From assembly GCA_963702425.1 (NCBI GenBank), contig CAVPCQ010000037.1:96001-160000 (forward strand): a stretch of 64,000 bases of DNA, written 5' to 3'. Under the pieces are notes generated by a model that saw only the letters and a list, made by a program, of their open reading frames with translations, was not told the DNA's origin and made no database searches. Below are positions 1-59,489 of the stretch, piece by piece; within the stretch, counting starts at the first letter, position 1; every line of letters begins with the position of its first letter. The position numbers were made by a program, and so were the translations under genes. The stretch comes from an uncultured Acidobacteriota bacterium. GTDB lineage: Bacteria; Acidobacteriota; Polarisedimenticolia; J045.

Positions 1-582
1 GACAACGATATCAGATCGGGAGCACTCTGCGTGCGATCGAACATGCCGTGGACAGCGGCAGAAAGGACGATCCCCATGGATGACCACCCCAGACTTGAAT
101 CAGAAGCTGAGGCCCTTGCACGGTTCCGCGCGGCTTTCGGCACCCCCGAGGAGATGTTCGCGCTAGGGCCTGGCGTCGGTCTGCGCGATCATGGACGCGG
201 AGGAGCGGGGCGAGACCACCGCGTCACCGTCGGAGTTCCTGGCAAGGCACCCGGAAGTCGTGCGCGTGATCGCCCGCAAGGCCCGCGAGGCCGCGGCTGA
301 GTTCCACGCGCGACGAGTGCCGGTCCGTCCCCCGATAGTGCGCCGGATGATTCGCTGCGCTCCCCGCCGGCTAGCTGTCAGGAGTCACCGAAGGGCCGCC
401 CGGGCGCTCCAGAAGACCGGCACCGACGACGACGGCCCCGAACCTGACCCAGCCGCTCGGCTGGGGTTCTTTCCTGACAACCTGTCCCCGGTAGCCGCGG
501 CCGTCGTCGTCGTCTATCTGGCCGCGTCCCTGGTGGGCTTCGCTGTCGGCTCCGCGCTGGCCTGGTGTTGCAGTGACGGCAG

Positions 583-746
583 CCTGTTGAACCTGGCGAA
601 GCCGCGGAGCGGCTGCGGTGTTAGGTCTCCTGGTACGCAAGCTGTCGCGGGTCGGGCAGCTAGAAACGGTACTGATAGGGCGCCTGCCGCGCTACACAGA
701 AGCCGCGCTAGACGACTACGTACAGCGCAGCACGAAGCGCGTCTAG
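583..746 (+). pseudogene. Excisionase/AlpA-like HTH DNA-binding protein, disrupted
   Basis: Reading across frameshifts gives LLNLA-EAAERLRC*VS-LVRKLSRVGQLETVLIGRLPRYTEAALDDYV, an HTH_17-like pattern; in-frame TAG at 622-624; boundaries approximate. Confidence 0.6.
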
Positions 747-1149
747 ACCTGGCAGTCGCGCGGCGCAGAGGTGCGAGGTGAGCGCGGCCGCGTCTAGTCC
801 ACGCGCCCCCGCCCCGTCTTCCAGCTGGTCCACTCTTCCAGCGGGCAGCAGATCTAGGAGCTGCGCGTGGCAGATGCGAGGCTAGCTGGCGTAGAGGCAG
901 CGCTGGCAGGCGGCGATCTGGCTCTCGCGCAACGGCTGGTTCGCTAGGCGCTAGACGACTGGCAGCGGTGTCGCGATGACGGCACTCGCCGCGGACAGCG
1001 TGCACGAAGTCGGCAGGGCGGTACTGGCTAGCGTACTGGTAGGCGAGCGAGCGCGGCTGGACAAGATCTAGAGTAGCACTTCTCGCGCGAGCTGGCAGCA
1101 GTCTGGTAGACAGACGTAACCTGCAACGGGCAGACGGGGAAATAGACAA

Positions 1150-2392
1150 GTGGCTCTGATGACCTGCGCGAACCTGAACGAGGAATAAGTCGCCGCCCTG
1201 GTAGGCGCAGACGAGCGCCACCTGATACTGTCCGCGGCGGCGGGCGTGGAGAAGCTGGCAGAGTACTTGCGCAGAAGAGAGGTAGCTAGGCTGGCAGAGA
1301 CGTTCCGCGAGCGATTCCTAGACGGCGACGGAGAAGAGACGTGGACGCGCTGCTGGCCGCTCACGATGCCGCCGTCCGCCGGCCGGACACGCTCGCGCTC
1401 GTCTCACCGGCAGAGCTGGCGCCGCCACGAGCCGGTACAGTGGATCATACCGCACTACGTCGCCACGGGCAGACGTGACGCTACTCGCCGGCGACGCGGG
1501 CAGCGGGAAGACATGGCTCACAGAGAACTGGGCTCTAGAGGTAGCTCTGCGCGGTGAGAAGGTACTGGAGTGGCAGGCAGAGCACGAGCTCCGGCTGGCG
1601 TCTCTGCGGGTACACAAGCTGCTAGGCGGCGCTGGCGCCGCTACGGAGGCAGTCGCTTAGTGGCGGTTACTGATACAGCCTGACCTCGACTCTCGACAGA
1701 TGCCGGCCTCGCGGCTCTCCGCGCTCTGATAGAACGCGAGCGCTCCGCTCTGGTAGTCTTCGATTCTCTGGTATGCGTCATGGGCAGCGCTAACGAGGAC
1801 AAGGCAGAGGAGGTCTCGGCGTTCTTAGGCAGCGTGTTCGTTCAGATCGCTAGGGACTACGGCTGCGGCGTCCTGGTACTGCACCACTTGCGGAAGCAGT
1901 CCGGGTCAGACGATAGCGGCAGCCTCCAGCACAAGGTCCGCGGCTCCTCCGATCTGCGCGCCGCCGTCGGGTACGTCCTGGTACTAGACCGCAACGGCGA
2001 GACGAGCACCTCTGGCAGACGAAATGCCGCTGGCAGCCAGAACAGCCGCTCGTCGGAATCCAGATCGAGGAGTGGACCACGGCGTCCGGGTCTCTGTCAA
2101 GGGCGCTGCAGACGCAGAGGTACTGATACTGAACAGCCTCGCAGATGCCGGACGGGCAGGGATGCTGCGCACGGAGCTGCGAGACCTGCTGGCAGAGCAC
2201 GGCGTCCGGGATACAGATAAGGCAGCGACGAGGACTCTCGGCTCTCTGAAGCGTAAGCGTCGCGTTGCGTGCACGGATACGGCAAGGCCGGGACAGCTAC
2301 TGGCTCCGCGACCACGCTCCGAAAGAAGCGCTGGAGGCGTCCGAGTGAGCTCAGAATACGGACACAACACGGACACTTTCACGGACAGATAA
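1150..2392 (+). pseudogene. AAA_25/RecA-like replication ATPase (primase-helicase type), fragmented
   Basis: PVQWII, Walker A GDAGSGKT (about 1490-1513), Walker B LVVFDSL, VLVLHHLRK and RGSS motifs spread over several frames with stops. Confidence 0.75.
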
Positions 2393-2459
2393 GAATACGG
2401 ACAGCTACTAGGCATAGCCGTATACACGCACGGACAGAGTACGGACAGATAAAAGGACA
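2358..2459 (+). repeat. Iteron array, probable replication origin
   Basis: ACGGACA at 2358, 2369, 2381, 2397, 2430, 2441 plus AAGGACA at 2453; mostly 11-12 bp spacing; at the 3' end of the replication ATPase. Confidence 0.7.
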
Positions 2460-2655
2460 TACGCTCGGAGGCGGGAGGCTCGCTGCCGCTCGCGCCGTCC
2501 CGCCACCGGGCAGACGTTATGTCGGGCGAATAGTGATCGTCTACAGGCACCGCGAGGCAGGGCGCATGACAGTCCCTTTCAATGCAGAAACACCCAATAG
2601 ATATAACGGTTCAGTGTAGATTTGGGTGGGCGCGGGCTTCTACATCGCCGCCCCT

Positions 2656-2704
2656 GAAAAAACGAACCTGTCCGCGGCCGCTGTTTTTTCTGAACCTGTC
2701 CGCG
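2656..2704. promoter_or_regulatory. Candidate packaging (cos/pac-like) or regulatory site upstream of terS
   Basis: Direct repeat GAACCTGTCCGCG at 2664-2676 and 2692-2704; inverted GAAAAAA (2656-2662) / TTTTTTC (2684-2690). Confidence 0.35.
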
Positions 2705-2771
2705 AGCAACGGCAGACGACACATTTGCACGCGCGGGTAAGTAAGGATACAGCTCTGAGAGGAGGCACCAC

Positions 2772-3190
2772 ATGAGCACGAGAGGTCAGATCGCGAAGTC
2801 TCACGCCGCGGCTCGCTGCGGCCACTACGGGCTCGCCAGCAAGGTAGCGCAGGTGTCGCAGAGCGATAGGCAGTTGCAGACGACGGCGCAGTCCTGGCTG
2901 CCAGAGGAGGCTCGGGCGATCTACCTCGCAGCGCTCGAGGCGCTGGTAGGTAGGGCAGGTGTAGAGGCGGTAGAGGTACTGTGCGGGTACGCGCTGGCGG
3001 TGGCAGAGCTGCGCCGGCAGACGGCGGCGGCGCGACAGAACAGGGCGGCGATCAGGGCAGAGCACGCGTGGTGCTGGCCTACGCGACGGCGCTCGGGCTA
3101 AGCTCTGCCGGCAGGGCTAGTCTACGAGAGCTGAAACAGGTTGATCAGATGACAGAGCGCGAGGCGACGATCGCCTCGCTGATTAGATGA
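2772..3190 (+). pseudogene. Phage terminase small subunit (P27-like), frameshifted
   Basis: GGAGG RBS; AQSWLPEEARAIY resembles P-x-WL-x-x-EA; C-terminal ALGLSSAGRASL resembles LGLTPxxRA; frameshift near 3063. Confidence 0.6.
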
Positions 3191-3202
3191 AAGGAGACGG
3201 AA

Positions 3203-3613
3203 ATGCAGATAGGGTTGAATGTGACAGAGAGCCGCAGTACGGTGCGCCACACGGAGAAGACGCACTGATTCAAAGACGCCGCTCTGAGCGCGGCTGTACG
3301 ACTGGGCGCAGATTCGCTGTGCCGCTGTGGCAGGCCGGACAAGCCGGGTCACGAACAATGCCTAGTCGCGCTCGCGACGCTGGCGATAACGCACCTCAAG
3401 CTGTTGCGGGGGGTGCTGGCGGCCGGCGACGCGGACGCGGTGCGGCGAGACTACACAGAGACGGCGACGGTACTGAAGCTCGAGGCGGAGCTGCTAGAGG
3501 AGTTGGTGCGGACGCGGGTGAACGCGCCGCAGGGCTAGACCGCGCAGAAGGTGACGAAAGAGATTCGCCGTCTCGACGACGGTAGTTTCATCATAGAGGA
3601 ACGGACCGCGTGA
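3203..3613 (+). pseudogene. Hypothetical protein with two in-frame stops
   Basis: AAGGAG RBS, ATG 3203, coherent 136-codon frame interrupted by one TGA and one TAG. Confidence 0.5.
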
Positions 3614-3700
3614 ACCTGACCACGAACACCCAACGAGGGGCGTCTGCGAAATCTCTGTCGGCCCCGACACCGCGCCAGAGGGCGCACGAAGGGACAGACC

Positions 3701-4968
3701 ATGAGTGACGCACGAATCAGCGAGCTGGTACAGGAAGAGGTAGCGGCCTACTGGAGCAAGCAGAAGTACAGGAGGCCGGACGAGGTGAGCGAGGCGGTGG
3801 CAGCGTAGAAGCGGGTAGTGACGCGGCGGGCTACCGGGGCAGGGCGGGGTCGGCGAAGATGGAGGCGATCTTCCCGGCGCTAGAATCCGGGATGACAGGT
3901 AGGCCGCTGCCGGTGAAGCCGCTGGCGCAGCGCGGGGCGGAGGCGGCCCGGCACGCCGGGGACTTCTGGAGTGACCTGCGAGCGGCGGCGCTGGACCATC
4001 TGTCCGGTCAGAGGGTAGCGCAGGGGCTGCTGGCGGCGGCCACGGGGCTCGGTCAGCAGGTTCAGAGCGAGGGCGGCTACCTGACGCCCCCGCAGCAGGC
4101 GTCCGCGATCTGGGACGCGCTGAACAGCAGTGTCAACGCGCTGTCGACGCTGTGCGACAACCACACCGTCACCGGCGAGTCGCTGAGCCTGCCGGCGAAC
4201 GCGGAGACGAGCCGAGTGCAAGGCAGCCTGTACGGCGGTCTGACGACCTACTGGGTAAACGAGGCAGACCAGATCACGGCGAGCAAGCAGAAGTTCCGGC
4301 TGCTGAAGCTAGAGCCGCAAGAGCTGATCGCTCTGTGCTACGTGAAGGACAAGGTACTGAACAACAGCGGCGAGGCGCTGGGCGCGTACCTGGAAGTCGC
4401 GGCAGGGATAGCGCTCGGGCACAGGCTAGACGCGGCGATAGCGGGAGGGATAGGGACAGGCCAGCGGCTAGGGCTCCTCAACGCGGCGTACACGGTGTCG
4501 GTAGCTAAGGAAGGCGGTCAGGCGGCGGCAACGGTAGTGCCGCAGAACGTCGCGAAGATGGTAGCGCGGCTGCATCACGGGGCGCACGGGACGGCGCGGT
4601 GGATCATGCACCCGACGGTGTACGCGCAGCTGCTACAGTTGGTGACCACGACGGCGGTCGGGAAGGGCGGGTACAACCTGTTAGATCCGGCGACGCGGAC
4701 GCTGGCTGGCTTCCCGCTCACGGTGACAGACGTGCTGCCGGTGCTCGGGAAGGTAGGAGACCTGATACTGTGGGATCAGACGAGCTACGCGGTCGGGAAG
4801 CGCGGGACTGAGCAGGCGGTGAGCATCCACGTCCGCTTCGACTACGGGGAGAGCGCCTACCGCTTCAAGCTCTCAGTAGACGGCCAGCAGTGGCTAGACT
4901 ACGAGATCACGCCGGCGGTGGGGTAAGACACTCTGAGCACGGCAGTGACGCTGGCGACGAGGACCTAG
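3701..4968 (+). pseudogene. HK97-family major capsid protein; open core 3859-4926, N- and C-termini cut by stops and a frameshift
   Basis: SEGGYL, ETSR..GSLYGG..YWVNEA, ARWIMHP, LG.VGDLIL, SIHVRFDY, VDGQ motifs; frame continues past TAA 4924-4926 as DTLSTAVTLATRT to TAG 4968; ATG 3701 frame has TAG at 3806. Confidence 0.8.
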
Positions 4969-4971
4969 GCC

Positions 4972-5451
4972 ATGTTAGCGAAGCAGAAGAAACGAGAAGT
5001 GATAGTGCGCACGTCGCGCGGGACGCTGGCAGAGCAGTTGGCAGCGCTCCGCGCGGCGCGGCGAGGCAGTCTGGCTGGGGTAGAGCAGAAGCGGCACGCG
5101 GCGGCGGTAGAGGCGGCGCGTCTGATGGACGCGTCTTTCCTCGCGATGCAGAAGCTCAGAGCGGTAGATTCAGAGGCGCACGGGGTAGAGTACGGTCTCG
5201 ACCTGGAGGAGCACGAGCTCTCGTGCAGGCTGGCAGACACGGCGTCGCCGGTGATAGACGAGTATCTCGAAGCGCTCGACGCGTGGTGGCAGAAGCACCG
5301 CCACGAAGTGCCGGAGGCAGGGCCGGACGAGACAGACGCAGAGGCGAGGGCGGCGCACCGCCGGCGGGTAGCACGGTTCCACGAGGTACGGCGCGAGGTG
5401 CTCGAGCTGCGCGTCGCCGAAGTTCCAGACCTGCATGACCGGCTCGGATAG
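4972..5451 (+). CDS. Hypothetical helical/coiled-coil protein of the element
   Basis: 159-aa ORF starting 4 nt after the extended capsid frame. Confidence 0.5.
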   Translation: MLAKQKKREVIVRTSRGTLAEQLAALRAARRGSLAGVEQKRHAAAVEAARLMDASFLAMQKLRAVDSEAHGVEYGLDLEEHELSCRLADTASPVIDEYLEALDAWWQKHRHEVPEAGPDETDAEARAAHRRRVARFHEVRREVLELRVAEVPDLHDRLG

Positions 5452-5647
5452 TTCGCGCGGGAGATCGGTCTCGCGTGGATGCCGCCGCTGCCGGTGGCCT
5501 GACGAGGGGGCGGTAGTGACAGCGCGGGCCGCTCTGCTGGGTACCGGTCTCCTGGTAGAGCCGGTCCCGGTTGTACGACCCGCGCGGATTCTCTCCGGGG
5601 GACCTGGTCGCATCGCGCGGCAGGGCCCCGCAGTTACGGAGGTGTTC

Positions 5648-5863
5648 ATGCGTGACGTGAGCGAGGCGCAGCGCCGGACGGCCGAACGGGCGGCGGCGCG
5701 GATCTTGGCGGACCTGCCGGGGATCATCGCGGCCGGCCGCGCCATGGGCGGCGACGTGGGCGCGGTGGCGGCGCTGGCGCTGCTGTTCGGGGAGTTGAGC
5801 AGGCGCGGCGTGCTGCCGGCGGAGCTACGAGACCCGGGACCGACGCCGGAGGTGCTGGCGTGA
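5648..5863 (+). CDS. Small hypothetical protein
   Basis: GGAGG RBS before ATG 5648; stop overlaps next GTG. Confidence 0.45.
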   Translation: MRDVSEAQRRTAERAAARILADLPGIIAAGRAMGGDVGAVAALALLFGELSRRGVLPAELRDPGPTPEVLA

Positions 5864-6389
5864 GCACGCTCGACAAGGTTCTCAGGGTGCAAGAGTTGTA
5901 CCGGACCGGGGTGTCCCGCTTCACTCTGCCGTCGCTGGACCGGCCGTTGAGCGACGCCGACCCGGACGGGCTGGCGCTGATCGACGTACTGCGGTCGCCC
6001 GACCCGTCACGGAGGCCGAGGCCGTAGACGCCGACCTGCGGCGCCGGCTGGCCGACCGGATGATGGCGCGGCTCGACGATCGGCAGCGGGCAGTGCTGTT
6101 CGCCCGGTTCAGCGGCTGGACGCTGGAAGATACCGGACGGTACTGCGGGCTGTAGCGCGAGCGAGTGCGCCAAGTCGAGCGCGAAGCCGGCGCGAAGTTG
6201 GCGGCCGAGGACTGGCCGCCCCCGGAGCCGATGCCGCTCGGCCGGCCGCGTAGCGAGCACCCCGAGGCCGACCCGCGGCACGCCCGGATGCGCGAGCTGT
6301 GGGATCGGCTGCGCAGCCTTCGCTGCTATCGAACGAACGCGAGCGGCTGGAGGCCGAGCACCGGGAGCTGGCCGCGGCGCTCCGGGTAG
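5860..6389 (+). pseudogene. Sigma-70 region 3/4-like HTH protein, disrupted
   Basis: SLDRPL, LDDRQRAVLFARF, WTLEDTGRYCGL*RERVRQVE matches the sigma region 4 GLSRERVRQIE motif; TAG at 6153-6155; frameshift near 6010; 3' end uncertain. Confidence 0.7.
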
Positions 6390-6847
6390 AGGGACCGCGC
6401 CGGTGACGAACCTCCGCAGGATCTACGCGCTGCCCCGCAGCCTGCGGTGCGGGATCGACGCGATCGCTTGGAGAGAACGGCACGCATTCCCGATCCCGCC
6501 CGAGCGCGTCGAGCTGACGGCCCCTATCGGCAGCGAGCCGGCCGAGATTCTGGGCGGCATCGCCGAACGGATGGCGCAATGACGGCCGCCGCTCGGAGCG
6601 GCTGTCAATACGGTTCCTCTTCCTTCTTCTCAGGTTTTTCCAGGCGCAGCTTCACTTTCAAGGCAGCGCACTCGGTGGCATTGAAACCGACTTTTTCAAG
6701 GAACCTCGACTCACCCATCGCATCCGCTTTGACTAGCAGTTCCTCCGGTGTTTCAGATTCCGTAATAACCATAGCGCCGGCAGTTCGAAACTCCAGCAAT
6801 GGACTCAATGCGAGCACATCTAAGCGCTTTCTGGCCTTCTTGAGGTC

Positions 6848-7563
6848 TTAGAACGGATGCGTCGCGGAACAGACGTCGCCCAAGTCAACTTCATCTGTCG
6901 CGGAACCGTATTTGAGGAACTCCGGTGTATAGAGCACTGTCGGGGTTGACGCTCTATACGGCAATTCGATATTCGTGGTCAGATACTCTGCTCGTGTGAT
7001 AGCGCGGACTCGTTCTAGAATCTCCTCTGCGATTTCCCTAAGATCTCGTTGCGATTTCCCACCCCCTGCTTTCGGAAGTTCCGCAGCGATCGCACTGAGA
7101 CTCTTCTCCAGTTCAGGCCACCAGACACGAGCAATGTGTCTTATCACTTCCTCGGGCTTCCTGGATTCATCTGGCTGTGCCCTGTTTAGGGCGAGTAACA
7201 GGTCGCGGGTTCCATCCTTGTCCGCATCTACTGCCTGGAACTGCCCGAGAGGCGCGGACAGGTCCGCCTTGTTGATGCCGATTAGGTACGGACAAACAAG
7301 CGAACCGGCGAGGTCTCTGGCGATCGCGCCGGCCTCGAAGTGCACCCATGGCGCGTCCTTGTTCTCCGGCGTGAGACATACAACCGCGATCCTAGAACTC
7401 GCGAGTCGATCTGCGAGCGCTACCGCTCATCGGCTGCTCGCAGAAATATCACTGGAAGAAACCGTCTCAAGTTTAGCATCGCTCGTTCGAGCTATTTCGC
7501 GAGCGCTTGTGCCACTAACTTGCTTCGGTTGCAGGACCACGAGATGAAGACGCTCACGCTCAT
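6848..7563 (-). pseudogene. TIR-domain protein (TIR_2 type), probable defence cargo, inactivated
   Basis: MSVSVFISWSCNRSKLVAQALAK*L...SSDISASSR*...VVCLTPENKDAPWVHFEAGAI...PLGQFQ; stops at 7492-7494 and 7427-7429 plus a frameshift; may continue into ORF 6605-6817. Confidence 0.8.
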
Positions 7564-8059
7564 TCGCACACCTCGCAACGTCGTAACGGAGCGATCGGGG
7601 CTGTGACACACACTTGTGCAAGGGGTTGGGCTCTGGCTCGCACGTCACGTCGCTGGCTTGTCTGCAAGGGAGATGCTTGCGAAATGAGGGTTGGCGGTCA
7701 AGGGGTCGCGGGGAACGTCTGTACAGACATGTATAGAGCTCTGGCGCTGCTCTGACTGGGTTGGGTATGGCGCTGATCTCGCTGGTTGGTTGGGGCGCTG
7801 CTCTACAGTTGTCTCGGGGGTGGCGTCTAGAACGGGTGAGGTACGCGGTTTATAGAGCGACATAGATCTGGACGGAGCGAACGCATTATTCTTTGTGCGC
7901 TCACTTACAGAAAGGAACATCAGTCTCTTCTGCTCGCCTCTTTGTTCTCTCTATTGCGCTGAGAATGTAATAGACAGATAGCTCAAGCACCACAAGGGTG
8001 ACGTAGCAACAGACGGCAAAGGAATGTCGATATAAGAATGTAGTGGCTTGGCTCATGAT

Positions 8060-8310
8060 CTAGAGAGCGAGGTAGGGAAAAAATAGAAACATAAAGGTAC
8101 GAATGAGTATCGTACACGGGACTAGCACGATCATGCGAAGCACATACGAAGTTTTCTCGGAGCGGCTCATGTCAGGCCAGAACTTCATGATAGTGTAAAT
8201 GGTGCGCTGGCAAGATGGGCATCGGACAATAGGCGGGATAATCACTCTTTGGCGTAGAAGGACGTCTCGAGGACGTGGTTACAGTGGGGACACGTGTAGT
8301 TCGAGTTCGT
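8060..8310 (-). pseudogene. Zn-ribbon membrane protein remnant
   Basis: YTCPHC and VRCPSC in adjacent frames followed by a hydrophobic segment. Confidence 0.3.
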
Positions 8311-9167
8311 ATCTGATCTTCTCTAGGCAACTAGACAGGAACGTTCTACAAAACTATTTGTGAGCAGGGCTATGCTCTTTCGCTCGTCACTCGCTGGAGA
8401 GGTATGCTCGCGCTGTCAGCTCACTAAGACGGTGACGGGGTTATCGGACATCGCAGCGTCTACTAGACGGTGCATTTTTTGATATTGATAGCGTTAGGCT
8501 TCGTAGCTGCTTGATCTCGCAAGGATGGACGATTGCAATAGCTAATAGAAGAAGAGGGCCATCTAGAACAGCATCTCAATAGAAAACAATAGTAGTCTGA
8601 GAGCGGTGCTTACAGAAGATAGAGATTGCACAACAAGTGATCAGCGAGGTTTGGAACGCAAACATCAGGGAGTTGCTTTCTTGGGTGCGTCGTATAGGAG
8701 TAGAAGAACATATACGGCGCTGCTGCGACTCTGTATGCTCACATCGTGGCGGCTCAACTGGGATTGATGCTGGGGTGTCGGTCAGAGAGATAAAAACGGC
8801 TCAGACAGAGACGACAATCAACACGAATTTGTAGGCGATTTCTAAGAAGATAAGGACGAGCGCAGTCTCTCACGCTCGCGGGCTGCCGCATACTGGGATG
8901 CGGACCCAGGAGGTATGACGGCACATGGCTAGAGTAAGGGCTGGGACGCTGCTGAGTAGGAAGGCGATTACAACGAAGATTAAGTGCACTTCGCTTGCAG
9001 GAAAAGTGAGATTGCTGATATCGGCACGGACAAGAATGCAGCTGCGAGGATCACTACAGGATGTTCGCGACGAGGGGGGGAATACTAGGGGGATATAGAT
9101 TGGGGACGCGTCTTATGACTATACACGTTCAGCTTATGATGTGCTACGCATGTCGAACAGACAATAC

Positions 9168-9617
9168 TCAGCTCGATGATGCGGGTTCGTAGATGTTGGT
9201 GCTGCACAGTGACATCTCAGGGCTCCCATCTCTTGCGCAGGTTCTCGTGCTGCTGACGACTCGCGTTATCTCGACGGTTTTCAAACTCTTGGTCTGAGGC
9301 GCGTTCTGGCAGTTCGGGCAGGAACGATAGCTGTTCGTCTTGACAATCAGGTGAACGAGTTTCCGCTGCGTGTAGAGACAGTTGGAACAGAAGGGCTCTC
9401 GGTTGTCGTTAGTACAGATGGCGTTGTCTTCGAATAGAGTGGTCGCGCGAATCTCAAGGTGCTCTTTGAGTGTCAGATTCTCGGCCTCCAATTCGGCGAT
9501 CTTCTTCTGTGCGTCGCTCAGATCGTCCACGACCACAAGGAGCGCCTGTTTGGGTTCGAGGTTGGCAATCCCCTTACTGACCTCGAGGATCGTCTTTATC
9601 GAGTCAATGAGCTCTAT
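9168..9617 (-). pseudogene. Coiled-coil plus Zn-ribbon protein; start codon reads ATA
   Basis: GGAGG RBS then ATA GAG in frame with ORF 9168-9536; IAELEAEN coiled coil; PFCSNC and CPNC. Confidence 0.55.
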
Positions 9618-9810
9618 GTGGCCTCCCGAATGTTAGACCGCATGGTACGATCTTACTCGAAGCGGGACCGCCGAGCGTTGATAGCGCGCGACGGCCCCTA
9701 ACGCAAGGCGTGAAAGGCCACGCGATGCGCTGTCCCGATTGTAACCAACTTCACCGCAAACGGGGACCGCTTGCGCCGTCGTGCGCTGCCCGCGCGCGGA
9801 GGGCGTCTTA

Positions 9811-10932
9811 ATGTCCAAGCGAAAGGTGCGGCGGTACGGAAGCGGCGCGGTGCAGCAACTCCCGTCCGGCTCGTGGCGGGCGCGGTTGCGCGCGGCCGGG
9901 CAGACCGTCGGCCGGACGTTTGCGACCCGCGAAAAGGCCGAAGAGTGGCTTCGGCAGTCGTCGCCGGGGGTCGCGGTCGCGAACGTGTTCGGGCTTCCGG
10001 ACCGGGGCGAGAGGCCAGACTGCACCTTCGCCGAGGCGGCCGAGTTGCTGCCGGCGGCGTGGGCGGCGCGCGGTCGGACGGCGGACAGTATCCGCGGTTA
10101 CCGCTCGCACCTGACGGCGGCGATGAAGGACTGGGGGCCGCGGCGGATCGCCGACACCCGACCGGCAGCAGTTTCACGTCTGGATCGCCGCCGAGCAGAA
10201 TGCCGGCCGGGCCAACCGAACGATCCTGCAACGGCTGGTGCAGTTGTCACAGTGCGATGAAGGCCGCCGTTGACGCCGGCTGGCTTCCCGGCGGTGCCCT
10301 GCGCGGTTCCGCGGCCCCGCGTCGTGGCGAAGTCGGAGCGCACCTGCACCCCGGAGCCGCAGTTCGAGAAGCTGCTCAAGGCCGCCACGAAGACGAAGGA
10401 CCCCCGGCACCTGGCGCTGCTGCTGCTGGCCGCGGACGCCGGGCTGCGCCGCGGAGAAATCGGCCGCGTGCTCGGCCGGCACGTCCGGCTCGGGGGCGAC
10501 GGGATCACGTCGTGGGGCACGATCCACGTCGCGGTGATCTCGGAGACCAGCCGCACCAAGTCGGGGAAGGGGCGGACGGTCCCGATCCTCTCGGCCCGGC
10601 TGGCGGACGCGCTCCGGGCCGTCTTCCCGCCAGCAGACGAGACGGTCCTGCGGCTGACGGCGCACGGCGTCCGGCTGCTGTCCGATGATCTCTGGACGGC
10701 GGCCAAGCTAGGGCCCGGCTCCCGGCTCCACGAGCTGCGGCACCGATGGGTGACCCGGCTGCTGGACGCCGGGGTCCCGGCGGTCACGGTCCAGTCGTGG
10801 GCCGGGCACGCGAGCGTGACCACGACGGAGAAGTATCATCACGGGGCCGCGGAACCGACCGCGGTAGCCGCGGCCGCGGTCGTTTCTGGAAAACGTGACA
10901 CGAAAGGACACGCGGTCAAGCTAAGTCGTTGA
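9811..10932 (+). CDS. int: Tyrosine recombinase/integrase; frameshifts at about 10170-10290
   Basis: N-terminal arm-binding YGSGAVQQLPSGSWRAR; catalytic AGLRRGE, TKSGK, HELRH, WAGH, TEKY all intact. Confidence 0.9.
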
Positions 10933-10933
10933 T

Positions 10934-11009
10934 GGGCCGTTAGCTCAGTCGGTAGAGCAGCGGACTTTTAATCCGCCGGTCGCTGGTTCGAGTCCAGCAC
11001 GGCTCACCA
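10934..11009 (+). tRNA. tRNA-Lys (anticodon UUU)
   Basis: 76-nt cloverleaf: acceptor GGGCCGT/ACGGCTC, D-arm, GCGGA-CTTTTAA-TCCGC anticodon arm, GGTTCGAGTCC T-loop, encoded CCA. Confidence 0.97.
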
Positions 11010-45876: not shown

Positions 45877-46473
45877 ATGGGACTCCGGGACTCTGCAAGG
45901 CTCCGCGCCGTTCGGCGCGTGTCGGCGGCGTTCGCCGCGGCCTGTGGCGTGCTGTTCGTCTTCGCCACGGCGTTCGCGTCTCCCGCCGCTACGCGGTCGG
46001 CGGCGATCGGAAAGCCCTACCAGCTGCTCATCGAACGGACCGCCGAGCGCCACCAACTCGATCCGCTGCTGCTGGCGGCGCTGGTCGAGGTCGAGTCGGG
46101 GCGCGACGCGGAAGCCGTCTCGCCCAAGGGGGCGCGCGGACTGGGCCAGCTGATGCCGGCCACGGCCCGCCGCTTCGACGTCGGCGACGTTCACGATCCG
46201 GCGGAGAACCTCGACGGCGCGGCGCGCTATCTGGCCTGGTTGATCGAGCGCTATCAGGGCGATCTGACCCTCGCGCTCGCCGCGTACAACGCAGGGGAGG
46301 GTGCGGTCGACCGGCACCTCGGCGTCCCCCCTTACCCCGAGACGAAGGCGTACGTGCGGAAGGTGCTCGTCCGGGCCGGCCTCCGGGAGGGGGCGACGCG
46401 GCGCAGGGGTCCCGACCCGGTGCGGCTCTTTCGGCAGCCCGACGGGACCGTCCTCATCTCCAACCTCAAGTAG
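45877..46473 (+). CDS. Lytic transglycosylase (SLT)
   Basis: VES, AVSPKGARGLGQLMP, ALAAYNAG, PPYPET..YV. Confidence 0.92.
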   Translation: MGLRDSARLRAVRRVSAAFAAACGVLFVFATAFASPAATRSAAIGKPYQLLIERTAERHQLDPLLLAALVEVESGRDAEAVSPKGARGLGQLMPATARRFDVGDVHDPAENLDGAARYLAWLIERYQGDLTLALAAYNAGEGAVDRHLGVPPYPETKAYVRKVLVRAGLREGATRRRGPDPVRLFRQPDGTVLISNLK

Positions 46474-46581
46474 GCGCGGAGCCCGACCGGAGCCCCGACA
46501 GCCCGCATGACGCTCCTGTAAGTCCAGCCGCCCGCGCACCCCCGCAGTCCGCCGTCTCCGGCCTGGCACAAGGAGTTTTCC

Positions 46582-46609
46582 TTGCCGCCCCGCGCCGCCA
46601 GCGTACTTT
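46582..46609 (+). promoter_or_regulatory. Putative sigma70 promoter of lipoprotein pair 1
   Basis: TTGCCG-N16-TACTTT; same architecture as 48632-48659. Confidence 0.5.
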
Positions 46610-46774
46610 TCCGGCCGGACCGGGGGGGACCGCAAGGTCCCCTCTAGGCGTTTTCTCTCAGTCCGGAAAGGGGGTCGGTCGTCGGTCGGAGCGCGTGTCA
46701 TGAACCAGGAGAAAAACCGAGAGAGCTGATAGAGGAGTTCAGATCAGGAACCCAAGGGAAAAGGAGTCGAGTTC

Positions 46775-47614
46775 ATGAAGAAGCTTCTCTTCATCGCGCT
46801 ACTGGCGGCATTCTCGCTGGGCTGCGCGATCACCAACTACCCGGTGATCACGGATAGCAGCGGCGCCGTCGACAACGGGGTGATGACCGGCCAGTACGAT
46901 CTGGCCTACATCATTCCGACCAGCCAGATCGCGACGATCTGGGACGACGGCACCGACGAGCTGTTCACCCTCGTGTCCCAGGACTGGAAGGGTGACCAGT
47001 GGCTGAAGACCTACAACAACTACGATTCGACGGGTGCCGTCGTCTTCCTCGACCAGACCTACTGCGATCCGACGTTCGACAGCAGCTACTGTGCGATCGC
47101 CACGGCCTGGAACCCGGACCTCCCGGACGCCTACGTCCACGGCGATCAGGGCGCCGGATACAACAATCTCGACAATCCGTTCGACTACACCGCTGACCTC
47201 AGCTGCAACGGCGCCCGCTCGCTGTCGGTGCTCGTCTCCTACACGAGCCGGATCGGCGAGTGCGGCAGCGGCGTCTGGGCCGACAAGCAGGGCGCTGCCT
47301 ACGAGTTCAGCATCCTGGGGCGGACCAACTTCCGCGGCCGGAGCCTGTACCATATCCCGCTGGACAACACCGTGGCCTCGTTCTCGGTCAACGGCACGGA
47401 GATGCCGGTCTACGGCCGGTTCAACCTCTACGTCGACGATTACATGCGCACGGTGATCCCGGTGACCCCCAACGCCCGGTACCAGCTCAACGCGCTGGAC
47501 CGTGCGGTGCGGCGGGACGGCCACTTCCTCGACGTGGACATGACGTACGGCTCGCTGACCGCGAATTTCAAGATCTATGTCAGCACCGTCCAGAACGCGC
47601 TCGACCGGCTCTGA
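46775..47614 (+). CDS. Uncharacterised lipoprotein, type A copy 1
   Basis: AAGGAG RBS, lipobox SLGC, FLDQTYCD motif; paralog of next three genes. Confidence 0.88.
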   Translation: MKKLLFIALLAAFSLGCAITNYPVITDSSGAVDNGVMTGQYDLAYIIPTSQIATIWDDGTDELFTLVSQDWKGDQWLKTYNNYDSTGAVVFLDQTYCDPTFDSSYCAIATAWNPDLPDAYVHGDQGAGYNNLDNPFDYTADLSCNGARSLSVLVSYTSRIGECGSGVWADKQGAAYEFSILGRTNFRGRSLYHIPLDNTVASFSVNGTEMPVYGRFNLYVDDYMRTVIPVTPNARYQLNALDRAVRRDGHFLDVDMTYGSLTANFKIYVSTVQNALDRL

Positions 47615-47632
47615 GCGGGAAAAGGAGAACTG

Positions 47633-48433
47633 ATGAAAAAGCTCCTGCTCAGCGCCCTCGTACTCGCCCTCGCAGCCGCCGGCTGCGCGGTGACCGACTA
47701 CCCCGTCATCACCGATGACCGGGGCAGCTACAGCGGCATCATCCGGACCGGCCACAAGGCCTACGTCGTGCCGACCTCGCAGATCGCGACGATCTGGGAC
47801 GACGGTTCGGACGAGCTCTTCTCGATGGTCTACCAGAACCAGTACGGAGACCAGAAGCTCTACACCTTCAACAACTTCGATCCGACGGCGTCGGTCCTGT
47901 TCCTGGACCAGACCTACTGCGACTGGCGCTACGATGATTGCGAAATCGTCCGCGCGTGGAATCCGGCCAACTCCAACATCGACAACCCGTTCGACTACGA
48001 GTTCTTCCCGGACTGCTCCGGGGCGCGCTCGCTGTCGCTGCTGATCAGCCAGAGCAGCCGTCTCGCCGAGTGCGGCGACAAGCTCCCGATGGCCGACAAG
48101 CAGGGCGTCATGGCCGAGTTCGCCAACCTCGCGACCACCACGTGGCGCGGCGGGGTGGCCTACGTGCTGCCGATCAACGCCGAGAACACCTCGGTCAGCC
48201 TGAACGGGGTGAGCATGCCGCTCTACGGGCAGTTCACGACGATCGTCACCGGCAGGATGGACCTGGTCGTTCCGGCCACCCCGAACCTCCGCCACGAGCT
48301 GCGCTGGCTGGCGGATTACGTCGCGAAGAACGGCAACCAGGCGAGCGTGTCGCTGACTTACGGTTCGGTCAGCGCCAACCTCGACATGGCGTTCTCCGCG
48401 AGCGGGATCAACTACAACCTCAATCGCTTCTGA
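47633..48433 (+). CDS. Uncharacterised lipoprotein, type B copy 1
   Basis: AAGGAG RBS, lipobox AAGC, FLDQTYCD motif. Confidence 0.88.
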   Translation: MKKLLLSALVLALAAAGCAVTDYPVITDDRGSYSGIIRTGHKAYVVPTSQIATIWDDGSDELFSMVYQNQYGDQKLYTFNNFDPTASVLFLDQTYCDWRYDDCEIVRAWNPANSNIDNPFDYEFFPDCSGARSLSLLISQSSRLAECGDKLPMADKQGVMAEFANLATTTWRGGVAYVLPINAENTSVSLNGVSMPLYGQFTTIVTGRMDLVVPATPNLRHELRWLADYVAKNGNQASVSLTYGSVSANLDMAFSASGINYNLNRF

Positions 48434-48457
48434 CCCTGTCCGACGCGCCGATCGACG

Positions 48458-48492
48458 GGGGCGGCTCCGCGAGGAGCCGCCCCTTTTTCTTT
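48458..48492 (+). terminator. Rho-independent terminator
   Basis: GGGGCGGCTCC-GCGA-GGAGCCGCCCC followed by T-tract. Confidence 0.88.
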
Positions 48493-48631
48493 GGTCCGAG
48501 GCCGTTCCGGCAGAACCGGGACCGGGCTGGACCACCGTTGGGGCCCGAAAACTAACTAACAGTTACCGATTGAGAAGTAAACGCGATGGCCGTCCGGGTG
48601 AAACCCCGCGAGTGGCGCGGGAAAAAACTGC

Positions 48632-48659
48632 TTGCCGAGCCCCCGGGTCGGCGTAGATT
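48632..48659 (+). promoter_or_regulatory. Putative sigma70 promoter of lipoprotein pair 2
   Basis: TTGCCG-N16-TAGATT. Confidence 0.5.
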
Positions 48660-48800
48660 CCGCTCGGTTCAGTTGATCGAGTCGCAATCCAGGGAGACGC
48701 ATACTGGAGAAAGGGGGTAGTTAGTCGGGTTGAGCGCGCACGTTGAACTGGTAGAGAGACGGAAACCAAGTCAGGTAACCAAGGGAAAAGGAGTCAATCC

Positions 48801-49637
48801 ATGAAGAAGCTTCTCTTGATCGCCCTGCTCGCGGCTTTCTCGCTGGGCTGCGCGATCACGAACTATCCGGTGATCTTCGACAGCCGGGGCGCCGATGACG
48901 GCGGGGTGATGACCGGTCAGTACGATCTCGCTTACATCAGCACCTCCCAGATCGCGACGATTTGGGATGACGGCACGGACGAGCTGTTCACCCTCGTGTC
49001 GCAGGACTGGAAGGGCGACCAGTGGCTGAAGACCTATAACAACTACGATCCGACGGGCGCGGTCACCTTCCTCGACCAGACCTACTGCGATCCGACGTTC
49101 GACAGCAGCTACTGCGCGATCGTCACCGCCTGGAATCCGGACCTTCCGGAGGCCTACGTGCACGGCGACCAGGGTGCTGGCTACAACAACATCGACAACG
49201 TCTTTGACTATACGTTCGACACGAGCTGCAACGGCGCCCGCTCGCTCTCCCTGCTGGTCTCCTACACCACCCGCTACGGCGAGTGCGGCAGCAGCGTCTG
49301 GGCCGACCGGCAGGGTGCGGCCTACGAGTTCAGCCTGCTCGACAAGGTCAACTTCCGCGGCAAGAGCGTTTACCACATCCCGGTCGACAGCACCGTGGCT
49401 TCCTTCACGGTCAACGGGACCGAGATGCCGATCTACGGCCGGTTCAACATGTACATGAACGACAAGCTCCAGGTCGCCATGCCCATGACCCCGAATGCTC
49501 GCTACCAGCTCAACGCGATCAACCGGATCATCGAGCGCGACGGCCACTTCATGGACGTGAACATGACCTACGGCTCGCTGAATGCGAACTTCAAGGTCAA
49601 CGTGACCACCGTCCAGAATGCGCTCGACCGGCTGTGA
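48801..49637 (+). CDS. Uncharacterised lipoprotein, type A copy 2
   Basis: Close paralog of 46775-47614. Confidence 0.88.
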   Translation: MKKLLLIALLAAFSLGCAITNYPVIFDSRGADDGGVMTGQYDLAYISTSQIATIWDDGTDELFTLVSQDWKGDQWLKTYNNYDPTGAVTFLDQTYCDPTFDSSYCAIVTAWNPDLPEAYVHGDQGAGYNNIDNVFDYTFDTSCNGARSLSLLVSYTTRYGECGSSVWADRQGAAYEFSLLDKVNFRGKSVYHIPVDSTVASFTVNGTEMPIYGRFNMYMNDKLQVAMPMTPNARYQLNAINRIIERDGHFMDVNMTYGSLNANFKVNVTTVQNALDRL

Positions 49638-49674
49638 TAGACGGAACCTTGAGCAGGATAAAAGGAGCGAGACC

Positions 49675-50466
49675 ATGAAGAAGCTGATTCTTTGCGCGGT
49701 CGTCCTCGCGTTCTTGGCGGCGGGCTGCGCGGTCACTGATTACCCGATCATCACCGATGACCGGGGCAGCTACAGCGGCATCATCCGCACGGGCCACAAG
49801 GCCTGGATCCAGATCTCTCAGATTGGAACGATCTGGGACGACGGAACGGACGAGATCTTCAACATGGTTTACCAGAATCAGTATGGTGACCAGAAGCTCT
49901 ACTCGTTCAACAATTTCGATCCGACCGGGTCGGTGATCTTCCTCGACCAGACCTACTGCGACTGGCGCTACGAGGGCTGCGAGATCACCCGTTCCTGGAA
50001 CCCCGCGAACCCCAACGTCGACGTCATCTTCGACTACGAGTTCTTCCCGGATTGCTCCGGTGCCCGTTCGCTCTCCCTCCTGGTCTCCTACACGACCCGG
50101 TACGGCGAGTGTGGTGACAAGTGGTCCAACATCCAGGACAAGGCCGCCGAGTTCGCCAACCTCGCCACGACCACCTGGCGCGGTGGCACGGCCTACGTGA
50201 TCCCGATCAACGCCGAGACCACGTCGGTGTCGCTGAATGGCGTGACCATGCCGATCTACGGCCAGTTCACCGCCTTCATCACCGACAAGAACAACACCGT
50301 CTTCCCGATGACTCCGAATGCCCGTCACGAGATCGCCTGGCTGAGCAACTACGTTGCCGAGAACGGCAATCAGGCCAACGCGACGATCACCTTCGGATCG
50401 GTCAGCGCCAACTTCAACATGGCGTTCGCGACGGACGGTCTCACCAACAACCTGAACCGGTTCTGA
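49675..50466 (+). CDS. Uncharacterised lipoprotein, type B copy 2
   Basis: Close paralog of 47633-48433; AAGGAG RBS before ATG 49675. Confidence 0.88.
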   Translation: MKKLILCAVVLAFLAAGCAVTDYPIITDDRGSYSGIIRTGHKAWIQISQIGTIWDDGTDEIFNMVYQNQYGDQKLYSFNNFDPTGSVIFLDQTYCDWRYEGCEITRSWNPANPNVDVIFDYEFFPDCSGARSLSLLVSYTTRYGECGDKWSNIQDKAAEFANLATTTWRGGTAYVIPINAETTSVSLNGVTMPIYGQFTAFITDKNNTVFPMTPNARHEIAWLSNYVAENGNQANATITFGSVSANFNMAFATDGLTNNLNRF

Positions 50467-50492
50467 TCTAGCACCGCGCGCTCAAACTGACG

Positions 50493-50521
50493 GGGGCGGC
50501 CCTTCGGGGCCGCCCCTTTTT
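50493..50521 (+). terminator. Rho-independent terminator
   Basis: GGGGCGGCCC-TTCG-GGGCCGCCCC followed by TTTTT. Confidence 0.88.

Positions 50522-52410: not shown

Positions 52411-59489
<7,079 letters not shown>

Follow-up and report, generated by a model that had tools for sequence, protein, structure and literature searches.

The window (the whole stretch of DNA that was analysed, 64,000 nucleotides) contains an acquired island with a hypermutated tract of ~4.9 kb, in which ~7% of positions carry a plus-strand C-to-A change, chiefly in a YCG context. The explanation we tentatively favour, at slightly less than even confidence, takes the sequence as real and attributes it to a one-strand burst of mutagenesis at C:G pairs, via abasic intermediates, in acquired DNA.

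Architecture of the island

The host is an uncultured high-GC bacterium and its genome is a MAG of 42 contigs with 91% completeness and 5.85% contamination. Host genes are uninterrupted, with ORFs of up to 1951 aa. The island occupies 11.2 kb at a tRNA-Lys gene between 40-bp repeats (40/40 identical). Two sister genomes (G001:C124 and G002:C3) lack any insertion at this position, showing that the island DNA was acquired. Its features, in window coordinates, are as follows.

-304 to -265 (C37:95696-95735), outside the window: left 40-bp att repeat
1-560, plus strand: left arm, not hypermutated, with the N-terminal part of an excisionase/HTH-like gene starting at 191
560-5450, plus strand: hypermutated tract with a weak tail to ~5640; plus-strand C>A, chiefly at YCG
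600-745, plus strand: C-terminal HTH part of the excisionase-like gene, with TAG at 621-623, frame changes and GTA/CTA/ATA/ACA codons (frame assigned by eye)
1246-2300, plus strand: AAA_25 ATPase (replication module) in two reading frames, with in-frame stops
2358-2447, plus strand: six ACGGACA copies starting at 2358, 2369, 2381, 2397, 2430 and 2441 (regex search)
2772-3190, plus strand: small ORF 5' of the capsid gene, with a frameshift near 3060
3701-4965, plus strand: HK97-type major capsid gene, broken (PF05065, 84.9 bits)
Within 5500-6600, plus strand: sigma-70 region-4-like gene in three frames (tblastn), with TAG at 6151-6153; host-like composition
6600-7650, minus strand: TIR-like gene with one frame change and stops
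7650-9650, no strand assigned: low-GC (0.49-0.58) cargo with few ORFs and no demonstrable hypermutation
9811-10932, plus strand: tyrosine integrase (PF00589, 57.9 bits on the C-terminal ORF), host-like GC
10933-10972, plus strand: right 40-bp att repeat, identical to the left copy
10934-11009, plus strand: tRNA-Lys(ttt) (ARAGORN)

At the left end, positions 170-439 are matched by xis209 (HTH_17) of G001, the closest relative (tblastn). The ATPase matched AAA_25 (Pfam PF13481) with 42.2 bits over profile positions 121-194 in one frame and 25.3 bits over positions 29-65 in another. The primase-polymerase of G001 has no match in the island, and the replication modules of the two differ. The ACGGACA repeats resemble iterons and may mark a replication origin. 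No other segment is as well conserved with G001 as the small ORF at 2772-3190 (78% nucleotide identity). An earlier sequence-only reading had labelled this ORF TerS, a label without support, as neither the ORF nor its G001 homologue gave a family match in Pfam or PHROGs. The TIR-like gene has a weak match to TIR_2 (21.1 bits, E = 4.7e-4, under the 28-bit cut-off) and matches phrog_13899 with E = 7e-22. The damage that had been described in this minus-strand gene is there, since it reads ISWSC and has a stop within its AKxLE stretch; it also changes frame. Stops that had been placed at 622, 4924 and 6153 are likewise all present, but the codon at 4924-4926 is TAA, not TAG; those at 621-623 and 6151-6153 are TAG.

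The integrase carries three frame changes within ~10130-10330 (three-frame translation). Because both the integrase and the sigma-like gene are frameshifted outside the tract, the entire island is dead, and every recognisable gene on it is broken. Judged by its gene content, the island is a dead, phage-satellite-like element. It shares with PICI-like phage satellites a tRNA site, an integrase, an excisionase-like HTH protein, an ATPase beside iteron-like repeats and an HK97-type capsid, but differs from them in its broken genes, in a capsid with ≤33% identity to any deposited phage capsid, and in having no recognisable portal, protease or terminase.

Substitution spectrum and sequence context

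G001 was used as a stand-in for the ancestor at the DNA level; the ancestral states are approximate because this nearest DNA comparator is only 65-78% identical. Over window positions 2683-4969, C>A changes numbered 89 against 19 A>C (p = 5e-12) and C>G, a minor product, was also raised (71 vs 42, p = 0.008). C>T was not raised (25 against 27 T>C), and G>A and A>G numbered 34 and 28. The earlier description of mainly C>A with some C>T and C>G holds for C>A and C>G but is not confirmed for C>T. The proposal that both strands were affected is only weakly supported, as G>T reached 21 against 15 T>G (p = 0.41). Composition agrees with this spectrum, with the tract 6.4 points richer in A and 7.0 points poorer in C than G001, and G and T the same.

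The conversion depends on the neighbouring bases. The CAGA/CCGA counts were 70/7 in the tract and 16/82 in G001 (Fisher p = 9e-25), and those of TAGA/TCGA were 32/13 and 2/33, respectively, while AAGA/ACGA showed no shift (15/42 in the tract, 12/28 in G001). With G001 as ancestor, its cytosines read A in the tract at 30/64 CCG and 12/38 TCG sites compared to 12/74 GCG and 5/40 ACG sites, which bears out the YC bias that had been noted earlier. The order of preference was CCGA > TCGA, CCGT > TCGG > CCGG > YCGC. Among codons one base away from G001, the C>A counts at codon positions 1/2/3 were 6/13/10 (17 of these changes nonsynonymous, 12 synonymous), compared to 3/1/10 for T>C and 3/6/25 for C>G. 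This spread indicates that the C>A changes were unfiltered by selection, in line with the earlier view of them as directional and unselected. A three-way parsimony analysis of the capsid gave a weaker signal, with C>A making up 26/140 changes here compared to 11/145 and 21/205 in the other lineages.

An ordinary history, in which the module came from a satellite of a lower-GC host or decayed slowly and neutrally under AT-biased host mutation, is very improbable. Satellites are mosaic, the replication module is unlike that of G001, the CTAG observed/expected ratio in the tract (~1-3) is like that of other foreign islands, and AT-ward drift is expected of dead DNA in GC-rich genomes. However, among C>A, C>T, T content and transitions the excess lies in C>A only, with T the same and transitions balanced; invariant residues were altered and stops created; the 40-bp att repeats remain identical; and a GC of 0.71-0.73 with host-like motif counts persists at 5500-6500 and in the integrase, although these parts of the island are just as dead.

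Extent of the tract and genome-wide distribution

Positions 1-9650 contain 41 copies of CTAG and the remaining 54 kb of the window 11, very close to the ~40 and ~10 first estimated by eye. By segment the counts were 2 (1-560), 27 (561-5500), 0 (5501-6600), 12 (6601-9650) and 11 (9651-64000). Genome-wide, CTAG averages 0.2 per kb, and the 2-kb segment richest in it (n = 18) falls here. The rare codons that had been pointed out are also real, with GTA/CTA/ATA/ACA used 8/6/4/3 times in the capsid ORF compared to 0/0/0/0 in the G001 homologue.

Across the genome, 10,135 windows of 1 kb were scanned with a motif index, and 14 exceeded the threshold of 0.6, 12 of them in the island and two in C39 at an Rhs locus. 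The residual of the index after adjustment for GC was 0.32-0.60 in the tract and ≤0.26 elsewhere in the genome (SD ~0.08). Hypermutation had been said to extend over 560-9650. This stands for ~560-5450; the 5501-6500 segment, by contrast, is host-like (YCGR 20 and 27, YAGR 4 and 3 per 500 nt), and 6600-9650 fits its low GC (0.49-0.58), with no motif-index outlier for that GC and residuals ≤0.20. Positions 1-500 had a YCGR/YAGR ratio of 18/7. Nor does the signature track mobile elements in general, since the CTAG-rich low-GC islands C11, C20, C29, C17 and C34 were unremarkable after GC adjustment.

The suggested confinement to acquired DNA was upheld by the empty tRNA-Lys site in the sisters. 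The host flanks, compared to the sister genome G004, had no C>A excess (C>A 1 / A>C 9; G>T 3 / T>G 14). These flanks, together with the MutY-like and Fpg genes that the genome encodes, show that the changes do not stem from a genome-wide repair defect.

The second tract, at the Rhs locus (C39:86068-87039), has a plus-strand C content of 0.10 and G of 0.33. At its alignable end, C was changed at 15/27 positions relative to a sister genome (7 to A, 7 to T, 1 to G), compared to 4/38 for G, 2/30 for A and 0/29 for T. C>A affected 6/14 cytosines in CpG and 1/14 in other contexts. Given their different spectra, the Rhs and island tracts may not share a cause.

The capsid gene and the question of an artefact

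The changes in the tract are substitutions without indels. In the capsid gene, the N-terminal part lies in a different frame with a TAG near 3806, and the main ORF (3859-4926) ends at the premature TAA, after which conserved residues resume in the same frame. Residues 31-355 (~975 nt, dense in C>A) are free of frameshifts, and the protein, which is on record from a single contig, the present one, is 65% identical to P0009. The replacements of conserved proline noted earlier were recovered, with Pro>Gln at 4063, 4288 and 4888 as well as Pro>Arg at 4465. Thr>Lys changes at 4345, 4663 and 4750 came to light in addition, and every one of these sites is a column that is conserved across 80 homologues or relative to P0009. 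In the comparison with P0009, Pro>Gln was seen five times and Thr>Lys three times, with no change the opposite way.

These observations also bear on whether the tract is an artefact, produced by a consensus of few long reads over a strain-variable region, by DNA damaged or modified on one strand and then read or amplified (e.g., from very few templates), or by a local assembly fault, a reading that we consider somewhat unlikely. The genome is a MAG of 42 contigs with the tract sequence on one contig only, and the anomalous tracts all lie in accessory DNA that is absent or different in sister genomes, the kind of place with the least coverage per variant. The assembly also contains a poly-A run of 65 nt, a poly-C run of ~75 nt and an 833-bp insertion bordered by C-less, G-rich tracts, so that local assembly faults are plausible in places, and the three integrase frame changes cluster within 200 nt. 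An artefact would, however, need nearly pure C>A errors with very few indels, as the ~975 nt of intact capsid frame attests, whereas long-read noise is indel-rich. The remaining genome is clean, and identical contexts were converted only part of the time; nine copies of CTCGA are left unconverted inside the tract, which argues against a deterministic k-mer miscall. Short-read damage, we reason, could not keep to one strand across 5 kb. The methylation-linked nanopore bias found in the literature is A<->G (bioRxiv 10.64898/2026.01.14.699587).

A cytosine-side or guanine-side origin

The same data fit equally well a lesion of guanine on the minus strand at 5'-CGR-3' (oxidation, depurination or ADP-ribosylation), with A inserted to give C>A and sometimes G to give C>G. 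A guanine lesion had been the original proposal and survives as one of two equivalent readings, though we judge it distinctly unlikely. Oxidation classically favours the 5' G of GG or GA, the CpG dependence in both tracts puts a C 5' of the damaged G, and simple deamination accounts less well for C>A with C>G and no C>T excess than an abasic site or a blocking lesion on a purine does. However, guanine lesions leave unexplained the Rhs tract, where C>T equals C>A (7 and 7 of 15), the genome has MutY-like and Fpg genes, and no candidate enzyme of the DarT or pierisin type came to notice. In the Rhs tract C>A is about as frequent as C>T and C>G is rare, as is reported for an E. coli deaminase editor without a uracil-glycosylase inhibitor (UGI), where C>A and C>T predominate with little C>G (PMC13454841), and we therefore lean towards a process on the cytosine side.

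For the favoured cytosine-side burst, the most likely mechanism would begin with one strand of the tract being single-stranded, or the sole template available, during the attack. An enzyme would strike cytosines in a YC(G) context, possibly a deaminase with uracil-DNA glycosylase acting after it, possibly a glycosylase that targets a modified cytosine. The abasic sites would be copied by translesion synthesis and fixed as C>A or C>G, and the resulting nonsense and missense changes would inactivate the element in place. The genome encodes UDG-family genes. Earlier reports describe bacterial deaminase toxins that mutagenise surviving cells (PMC7901873) and antiviral DNA glycosylases that make abasic sites in phage DNA (PMC11078745). 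The complete lack of a C>T excess in the window tract is unusual for the deaminase route and counts against it. We know of no deaminase preference that accounts for the CpG dependence. The DddA-like and YwqJ deaminase toxin families gave no hits in the genome. Four MafB19-deam hits were rejected as deaminase toxins, as they resemble ordinary housekeeping genes with a CDA fold and the model also matches 12/14 control genomes.

Comparison with known systems

The fungal process RIP, to which the tract had been likened, converts C to T at CpA sites of both strands, and only where sequence is duplicated. Both share dense point mutation that creates stops and permanently inactivates selfish DNA in place. 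The likeness goes no further, as the tract differs in spectrum (C>A at YCG), in strand pattern (mostly one strand) and in repeat dependence, its sole paralogue in the genome being 64-84% identical over ≤~500 nt. No prokaryotic counterpart of RIP was found in a literature search.

Comparable strand-coordinated, cytosine-directed hypermutation is produced by APOBEC3 on retroviral cDNA. Both APOBEC3 and the deaminase toxins yield C>T, however, while the tract yields C>A (with C>G), is confined to 4.9 kb and has a strong need for a following G. Among the toxins, DddA acts on double-stranded DNA at 5'-TC and SsdA on single-stranded DNA (PMC7901873, PMC10442228, PMC12494967). Their reported effects resemble the tract in being cytosine-directed with a preference for a preceding pyrimidine, in that dense mutation can inactivate an element, and in the strand-coordinated changes that a single-stranded substrate gives. 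The reported bacterial cases are genome-wide, in cells without uracil-DNA glycosylase, whereas the tract is local.

Cytosine base editing in E. coli without UGI resembles the Rhs tract and illustrates how attack on cytosine can finish as C>A (PMC13454841). That system is engineered and Cas9-guided with a window of a few bases, while the island tract covers kilobases with no known targeting and no C>T component. Brig1 and the base-excision restriction enzymes defend by base removal, which creates abasic sites at particular bases or motifs (PMC11078745, PMC10273834). They are reported to block replication and not to leave fixed, hypermutated survivors, and their targets are hydroxymethylcytosine, or adenine in a recognition site, compared to C at YCG in the tract. 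No gene for an enzyme of this kind was identified here.

The tract represents either a previously undescribed kind of mutagenesis that targets acquired DNA or a sequencing fault that has escaped recognition.

Island and its genes

The genome under study (G000) is metagenome-assembled, with 5.1 Mb in 42 contigs, 71% GC, a completeness of 91% and a contamination of 5.85%. The window opens with 11 kb of an integrated island, which is flanked by a perfect 40-bp direct repeat with one copy at 10933-10972 and the second at -304 to -265, left of the window. The right copy is the 5' part of a tRNA-Lys(ttt) gene (10934-11009). In the sister genomes G001 (contig C124) and G002 (contig C3) the left flank abuts the tRNA directly, the site being empty, and the 11.2 kb are thus an acquisition. 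All recognisable genes of the island were found to be broken. From left to right it carries:

Excisionase/HTH-like gene, leftmost; first 370 nt clean, the left edge of the altered tract falling inside it
AAA_25 ATPase gene, in two frames
Six iteron-like ACGGACA repeats
Small ORF, no family matches
HK97-type capsid gene (PF05065, 84.9 bits)
Sigma-70 region-4-like gene, across three frames
Low-GC cargo, including a minus-strand TIR-like gene that is broken
Tyrosine integrase gene, rightmost, with three frame changes inside ~200 nt

As predicted from these genes, the order is that of a phage satellite, and the island combines features of PICI-like elements: an integrase and att repeats at a conserved site, a replication module, packaging/capsid genes and a size of ~10-15 kb. 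The sequence-only reading had called the small ORF a small terminase (TerS), a label that no family match supported. The two att repeats are fully identical despite island genes riddled with stops and frameshifts, which argues for fast inactivation and not slow decay. No DNA relative near enough to locate the integrase frameshifts was found.

Plus-strand C-to-A change at YCG

The sequence-only reading had proposed a two-strand, RIP-like hypermutation over 560-9650, pointing among other signs to an excess of CTAG. The assembly does contain the anomaly, although over a narrower stretch than that interval. The CTAG excess was borne out by counting (41 in 1-9650 vs 11 in 9651-64000), and the start of the island is the richest 2-kb CTAG window of the whole genome. 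CTAG is nevertheless a weak index, because the host avoids it (observed/expected ~0.08) and any foreign DNA therefore scores high. A GC-adjusted index of YCG motifs took the place of the CTAG count; a simple index of YAGR/YCTR was dropped because GC confounded it. The specific signal was YAG in place of YCG on the plus strand, as seen when paired 4-mers were counted in 561-5450 and on the sense strand of the related element in G001, the closest DNA comparator.

Paired 4-mer counts in the tract (561-5450) and in the G001 element (sense strand)
CAGA/CCGA: tract 70/7; G001 16/82
TAGA/TCGA: tract 32/13; G001 2/33
CAGT/CCGT: tract 18/7; G001 11/33
TAGG/TCGG: tract 20/19; G001 2/47
AAGA/ACGA: tract 15/42; G001 12/28 (unchanged)

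Compared to G001 the composition shifted by +6.4 points for A and -7.0 points for C with G and T unchanged, which, for an ancestor like G001, corresponds to roughly 300 C>A changes or more over the 4.9 kb. Over the 1.4 kb that could be aligned to G001 (65-78% identity), C>A outnumbered A>C by 89 to 19, with 21 G>T vs 15 T>G, 25 C>T vs 27 T>C and 71 C>G vs 42 G>C. With G001 as ancestor, C had become A at 30/64 CCG, 12/38 TCG, 12/74 GCG and 5/40 ACG, in agreement with the 5' pyrimidine preference noticed earlier from the sequence. The anomaly is statistically extreme and unique in the genome, and a change from C to A at YCG on the plus strand, across ~4.9 kb of a dead satellite island, describes it well.

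The RIP-like reading was not upheld, as product, strand pattern and the absence of a duplicated partner all differ. RIP gives C>T at CpA on both strands, whereas here C>T and T>C were balanced and the excess was plus-strand C>A. A search of the genome for a duplicated partner of 560-6600 returned only pieces of 56-469 nt on contig C34, with 67-84% identity.

Extent of the tract and genome-wide scan

Counted per 500 nt, YCGR/YAGR ran from 2/14 to 13/17 across 501-5500, then reached 20/4 and 27/3 in 5501-6500, with 23/4.8 in the remaining window. The cargo at 6600-9650, also claimed as hypermutated, has low GC only and was no outlier once the motif index was regressed on GC. The affected stretch is 560-5450, and the remainder of the first interval is not demonstrably so. 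Across the genome, the index exceeded 0.6 in 14 of 10,135 1-kb windows, 12 of them in the island and two in contig C39. The idea that the signature tracks other mobile elements found no support, since the CTAG-rich islands on contigs C11, C20, C29, C17 and C34 stayed under 0.6; the signature is therefore not general to mobile elements.

Two other stretches were noted. C34:49323-54634 is a second, distantly related island in G000 with short pieces 64-84% identical, mildly raised CTAG and normal GC; the same contig has a G-poor stretch with short tandem repeats at 57451-57774. Window 46000-50500 holds four same-strand ORFs with a GC of 0.60-0.68, high at the third codon position and low at the first and second.

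Coding effects

In codons differing from G001 at one base, C>A fell 6, 13 and 10 times at positions 1, 2 and 3, and was nonsynonymous in 17 cases vs synonymous in 12. The ordinary divergence classes displayed a third-position bias (T>C 3/1/10; C>G 3/6/25). The capsid departs from 80 homologues at 52 of 182 conserved columns, among which the previously noted Pro>Gln at 4288 and 4888 and Pro>Arg at 4465 were recovered, together with Thr>Lys at 4345, 4663 and 4750. Against the closest capsid protein (P0009; 65% identical) there were five Pro>Gln and three Thr>Lys with none in the reverse direction. The three stops that had been read as former serine codons are present at 621-623, 4924-4926 and 6151-6153, with conserved residues going on beyond each; the first and last are TAG and that at 4924-4926 is TAA. 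In a three-way capsid parsimony, C>A made up 26/140 changes on this lineage compared to 11/145 and 21/205 on the other two, a weaker test because the comparators are ~50% identical.

Further readings were rejected. A lower-GC codon dialect does not fit, as T was not raised and stops were created. Stop-codon recoding does not account for the missense changes that also hit invariant Pro and Thr. Selection for loss of restriction sites is at odds with changes that are one-directional and stop-creating.

Other mutational processes

A genome-wide mutator was rejected on host flanks of an unrelated locus, where 2.96 kb of G000 and its sister G004 (~93% identical) differed by C>A 1/A>C 9 and G>T 3/T>G 14. 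Failure of the GO system with an 8-oxoG mutator was likewise rejected, since a MutY-like frame is open (284 bits) and two Fpg matches were found. Gradual decay would not spare equally dead parts of the island, which hold a GC of 0.71-0.73 and host-like motif counts, and transitions were without excess. A diversity-generating retroelement was discarded because A sites are not the mutated class and a search of the genome yielded no repeat pair.

Other C-poor tracts in the genome

The tract on contig C39 (86068-87039) spans 970 nt, and its plus strand is A 0.34, C 0.10, G 0.33 and T 0.23. The tract starts directly after an Rhs core-end motif, where a toxin tip would be expected to start. Its last 125 nt align with G004, and in these 15/27 C were changed (7 to A, 7 to T, 1 to G) compared to 4/38 G, 2/30 A and 0/29 T; divergence from G004 was normal in the 645 nt after the tract. 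C>A affected 6/14 cytosines with a 3' G vs 1/14 others, and C>T displayed the opposite trend (2/14 at CpG vs 5/14 others). The surrounding Rhs array (C39:84040-95848) contains four ~0.9-kb core-end segments and three 1.2-kb segments at 81-94% identity, and three tips located by motif, one open over 294 aa and two cut after 6 and 18 aa.

On contig C31 (17551-18383), an 833-bp insertion relative to G004 lies between adjacent same-strand genes. By eye it holds a nucleotidyltransferase/HEPN-like pair, and on both sides it is bordered by G-rich tracts without C (~50 nt and ~120 nt). In these two places and in the island alike, it is the coding strand of the resident genes that is poor in C (orientations partly by eye). 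A transcription-strand rule was rejected, as the minus-strand TIR-like gene of the island seemed by eye to be changed on its template strand (1-2 sites).

C-less runs of at least 55 nt were present in 8 of 23 family genomes, mostly in G000, so some such tracts are natural in the lineage. A near-identical GAAGGAG-type polypurine tract is common to G001 (C212:6957-7015) and G003 (C24:12117-12175), and G-rich tandem repeats were seen in G002 and G009 near the ends of the fetched stretches.

Real sequence or artefact

We consider it possible, but doubtful, that the tract is an artefact such as a sequencing fault. G000 is a MAG, a search for sequencing runs with 560-9650 found none, and a single contig is the sole record of the capsid. 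The anomalous places are all accessory DNA, with the lowest coverage per variant. Elsewhere the assembly contains odd filler tracts and, inside contigs, ~65 A at C36:77523-77592 and ~75 C at C21:~160030-160103 (with a pyrimidine-rich left flank), which could be either extreme homopolymer tracts or artefacts of assembly. A search for contig-end overlaps in G000, a clue to the assembler, returned none.

Against a fault, the change is of one substitution type with very few indels, and ~975 nt of the capsid run without a frameshift. The genes of the host are intact, with ORFs reaching 1951 codons. Identical 5-mer contexts were converted only partially, CTCGA being retained nine times within the tract, and persistence on one strand over 5 kb should be impossible for short-read damage. 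A methylation-linked nanopore miscall was rejected because the spectrum is C>A and identical motifs are intact outside the island; the bias of this kind described in one preprint (bioRxiv 10.64898/2026.01.14.699587) is A<->G. If the tract were nevertheless an artefact, it would still be worth knowing, as an error mode that is substitution-only, strand-coherent and motif-bound, is let through by MAG quality checks and looks like pseudogenisation.

Searches for relatives

The window capsid had no match among genome contigs, where P0009 found two loci (42-43%). With a three-capsid alignment as query, metagenome contigs gave 80 loci with identities of no more than 43%, and with P0009 viral contigs gave 21 loci at up to 52%. 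For the host itself, an Atlas look-up with a PilT protein pointed to no one phylum. Among the 23 family genomes, capsid relatives occurred only in G001 (51%), G017 (50%) and G012 (35%).

Proposed mechanism

As the change is one-stranded, context-bound and near-saturating, one strand would have been single-stranded, or the sole template, at the time of attack, and the lesion would have been beyond repair from the partner strand. Two chemistries could yield plus-strand C>A: an attack on plus-strand cytosine or on minus-strand guanine.

We lean towards the cytosine. The 5' pyrimidine preference matches known DNA deaminases and is shared by DNA deaminases other than DddA. DddA itself is described as acting at 5'-TC (PMC10442228, PMC12494967). 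The 7:7:1 spectrum in C39 resembles that of an E. coli deaminase editor lacking a uracil-glycosylase inhibitor, reported to give C>A and C>T as its main products and few C>G (PMC13454841), and known antiviral glycosylases are reported to leave abasic sites in phage DNA (PMC11078745). UDG-family genes, present in G000, also favour this side. The tract shares with deaminase hypermutation of the APOBEC/DddA/SsdA type a mutated C, a 5' pyrimidine preference and strand coordination, but the window tract has no C>T excess, and C>T as a product was seen only in C39 (7/15 changes).

The guanine lesion suggested by the sequence-only reading remains a live alternative, because the tract lacks a C>T excess and has a C>G excess, both of which count against the cytosine side; because of the CpG dependence, which to our knowledge is no trait of any known deaminase; and because a deaminase toxin was not found with the three families searched in the 91%-complete genome. 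PF14428 and PF14431 gave no matches, but PF14428 matched no control genome either. The four matches to PF14437 resemble generic genes of the CDA fold. Any such enzyme could also have come from another cell or a phage. On contig C24 (110528-110758), a CDA-fold nucleoside deaminase-like gene is seemingly split over two frames.

Returning to attack on cytosine, we tentatively propose, as a conjecture that may well fail, that the lineage, its competitors or phages possess an enzyme that hits YCG cytosines in one strand of mobile DNA, either incoming or induced, and that the abasic sites it leaves end up as C>A. Prokaryotes would then have their own equivalent of APOBEC3 restriction or RIP, one that disables acquired elements for good instead of cutting them, and the satellite island, the Rhs toxin-tip cassette and the small toxin-antitoxin-like insert would be three of its scars.

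Significance

Literature searches returned no case of a bacterial mobile element inactivated by dense strand-specific and motif-specific point mutation, and we know of no earlier natural record of such inactivation. If real, the chemistry is close to deaminase or glycosylase mutagenesis, and what is new is its confinement to a tract, its specificity for one strand and its occurrence in acquired DNA. It would imply an enzyme that prefers YCG and gives C>A, either a glycosylase by itself or a deaminase acting together with one. The island would then be a natural instance of a bacterial mobile element inactivated by dense strand- and motif-specific point mutation and not by cleavage, deletion or slow decay. 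Such an enzyme would be relevant to defence biology and to the fate of horizontally acquired DNA, and might serve for C-to-A editing.
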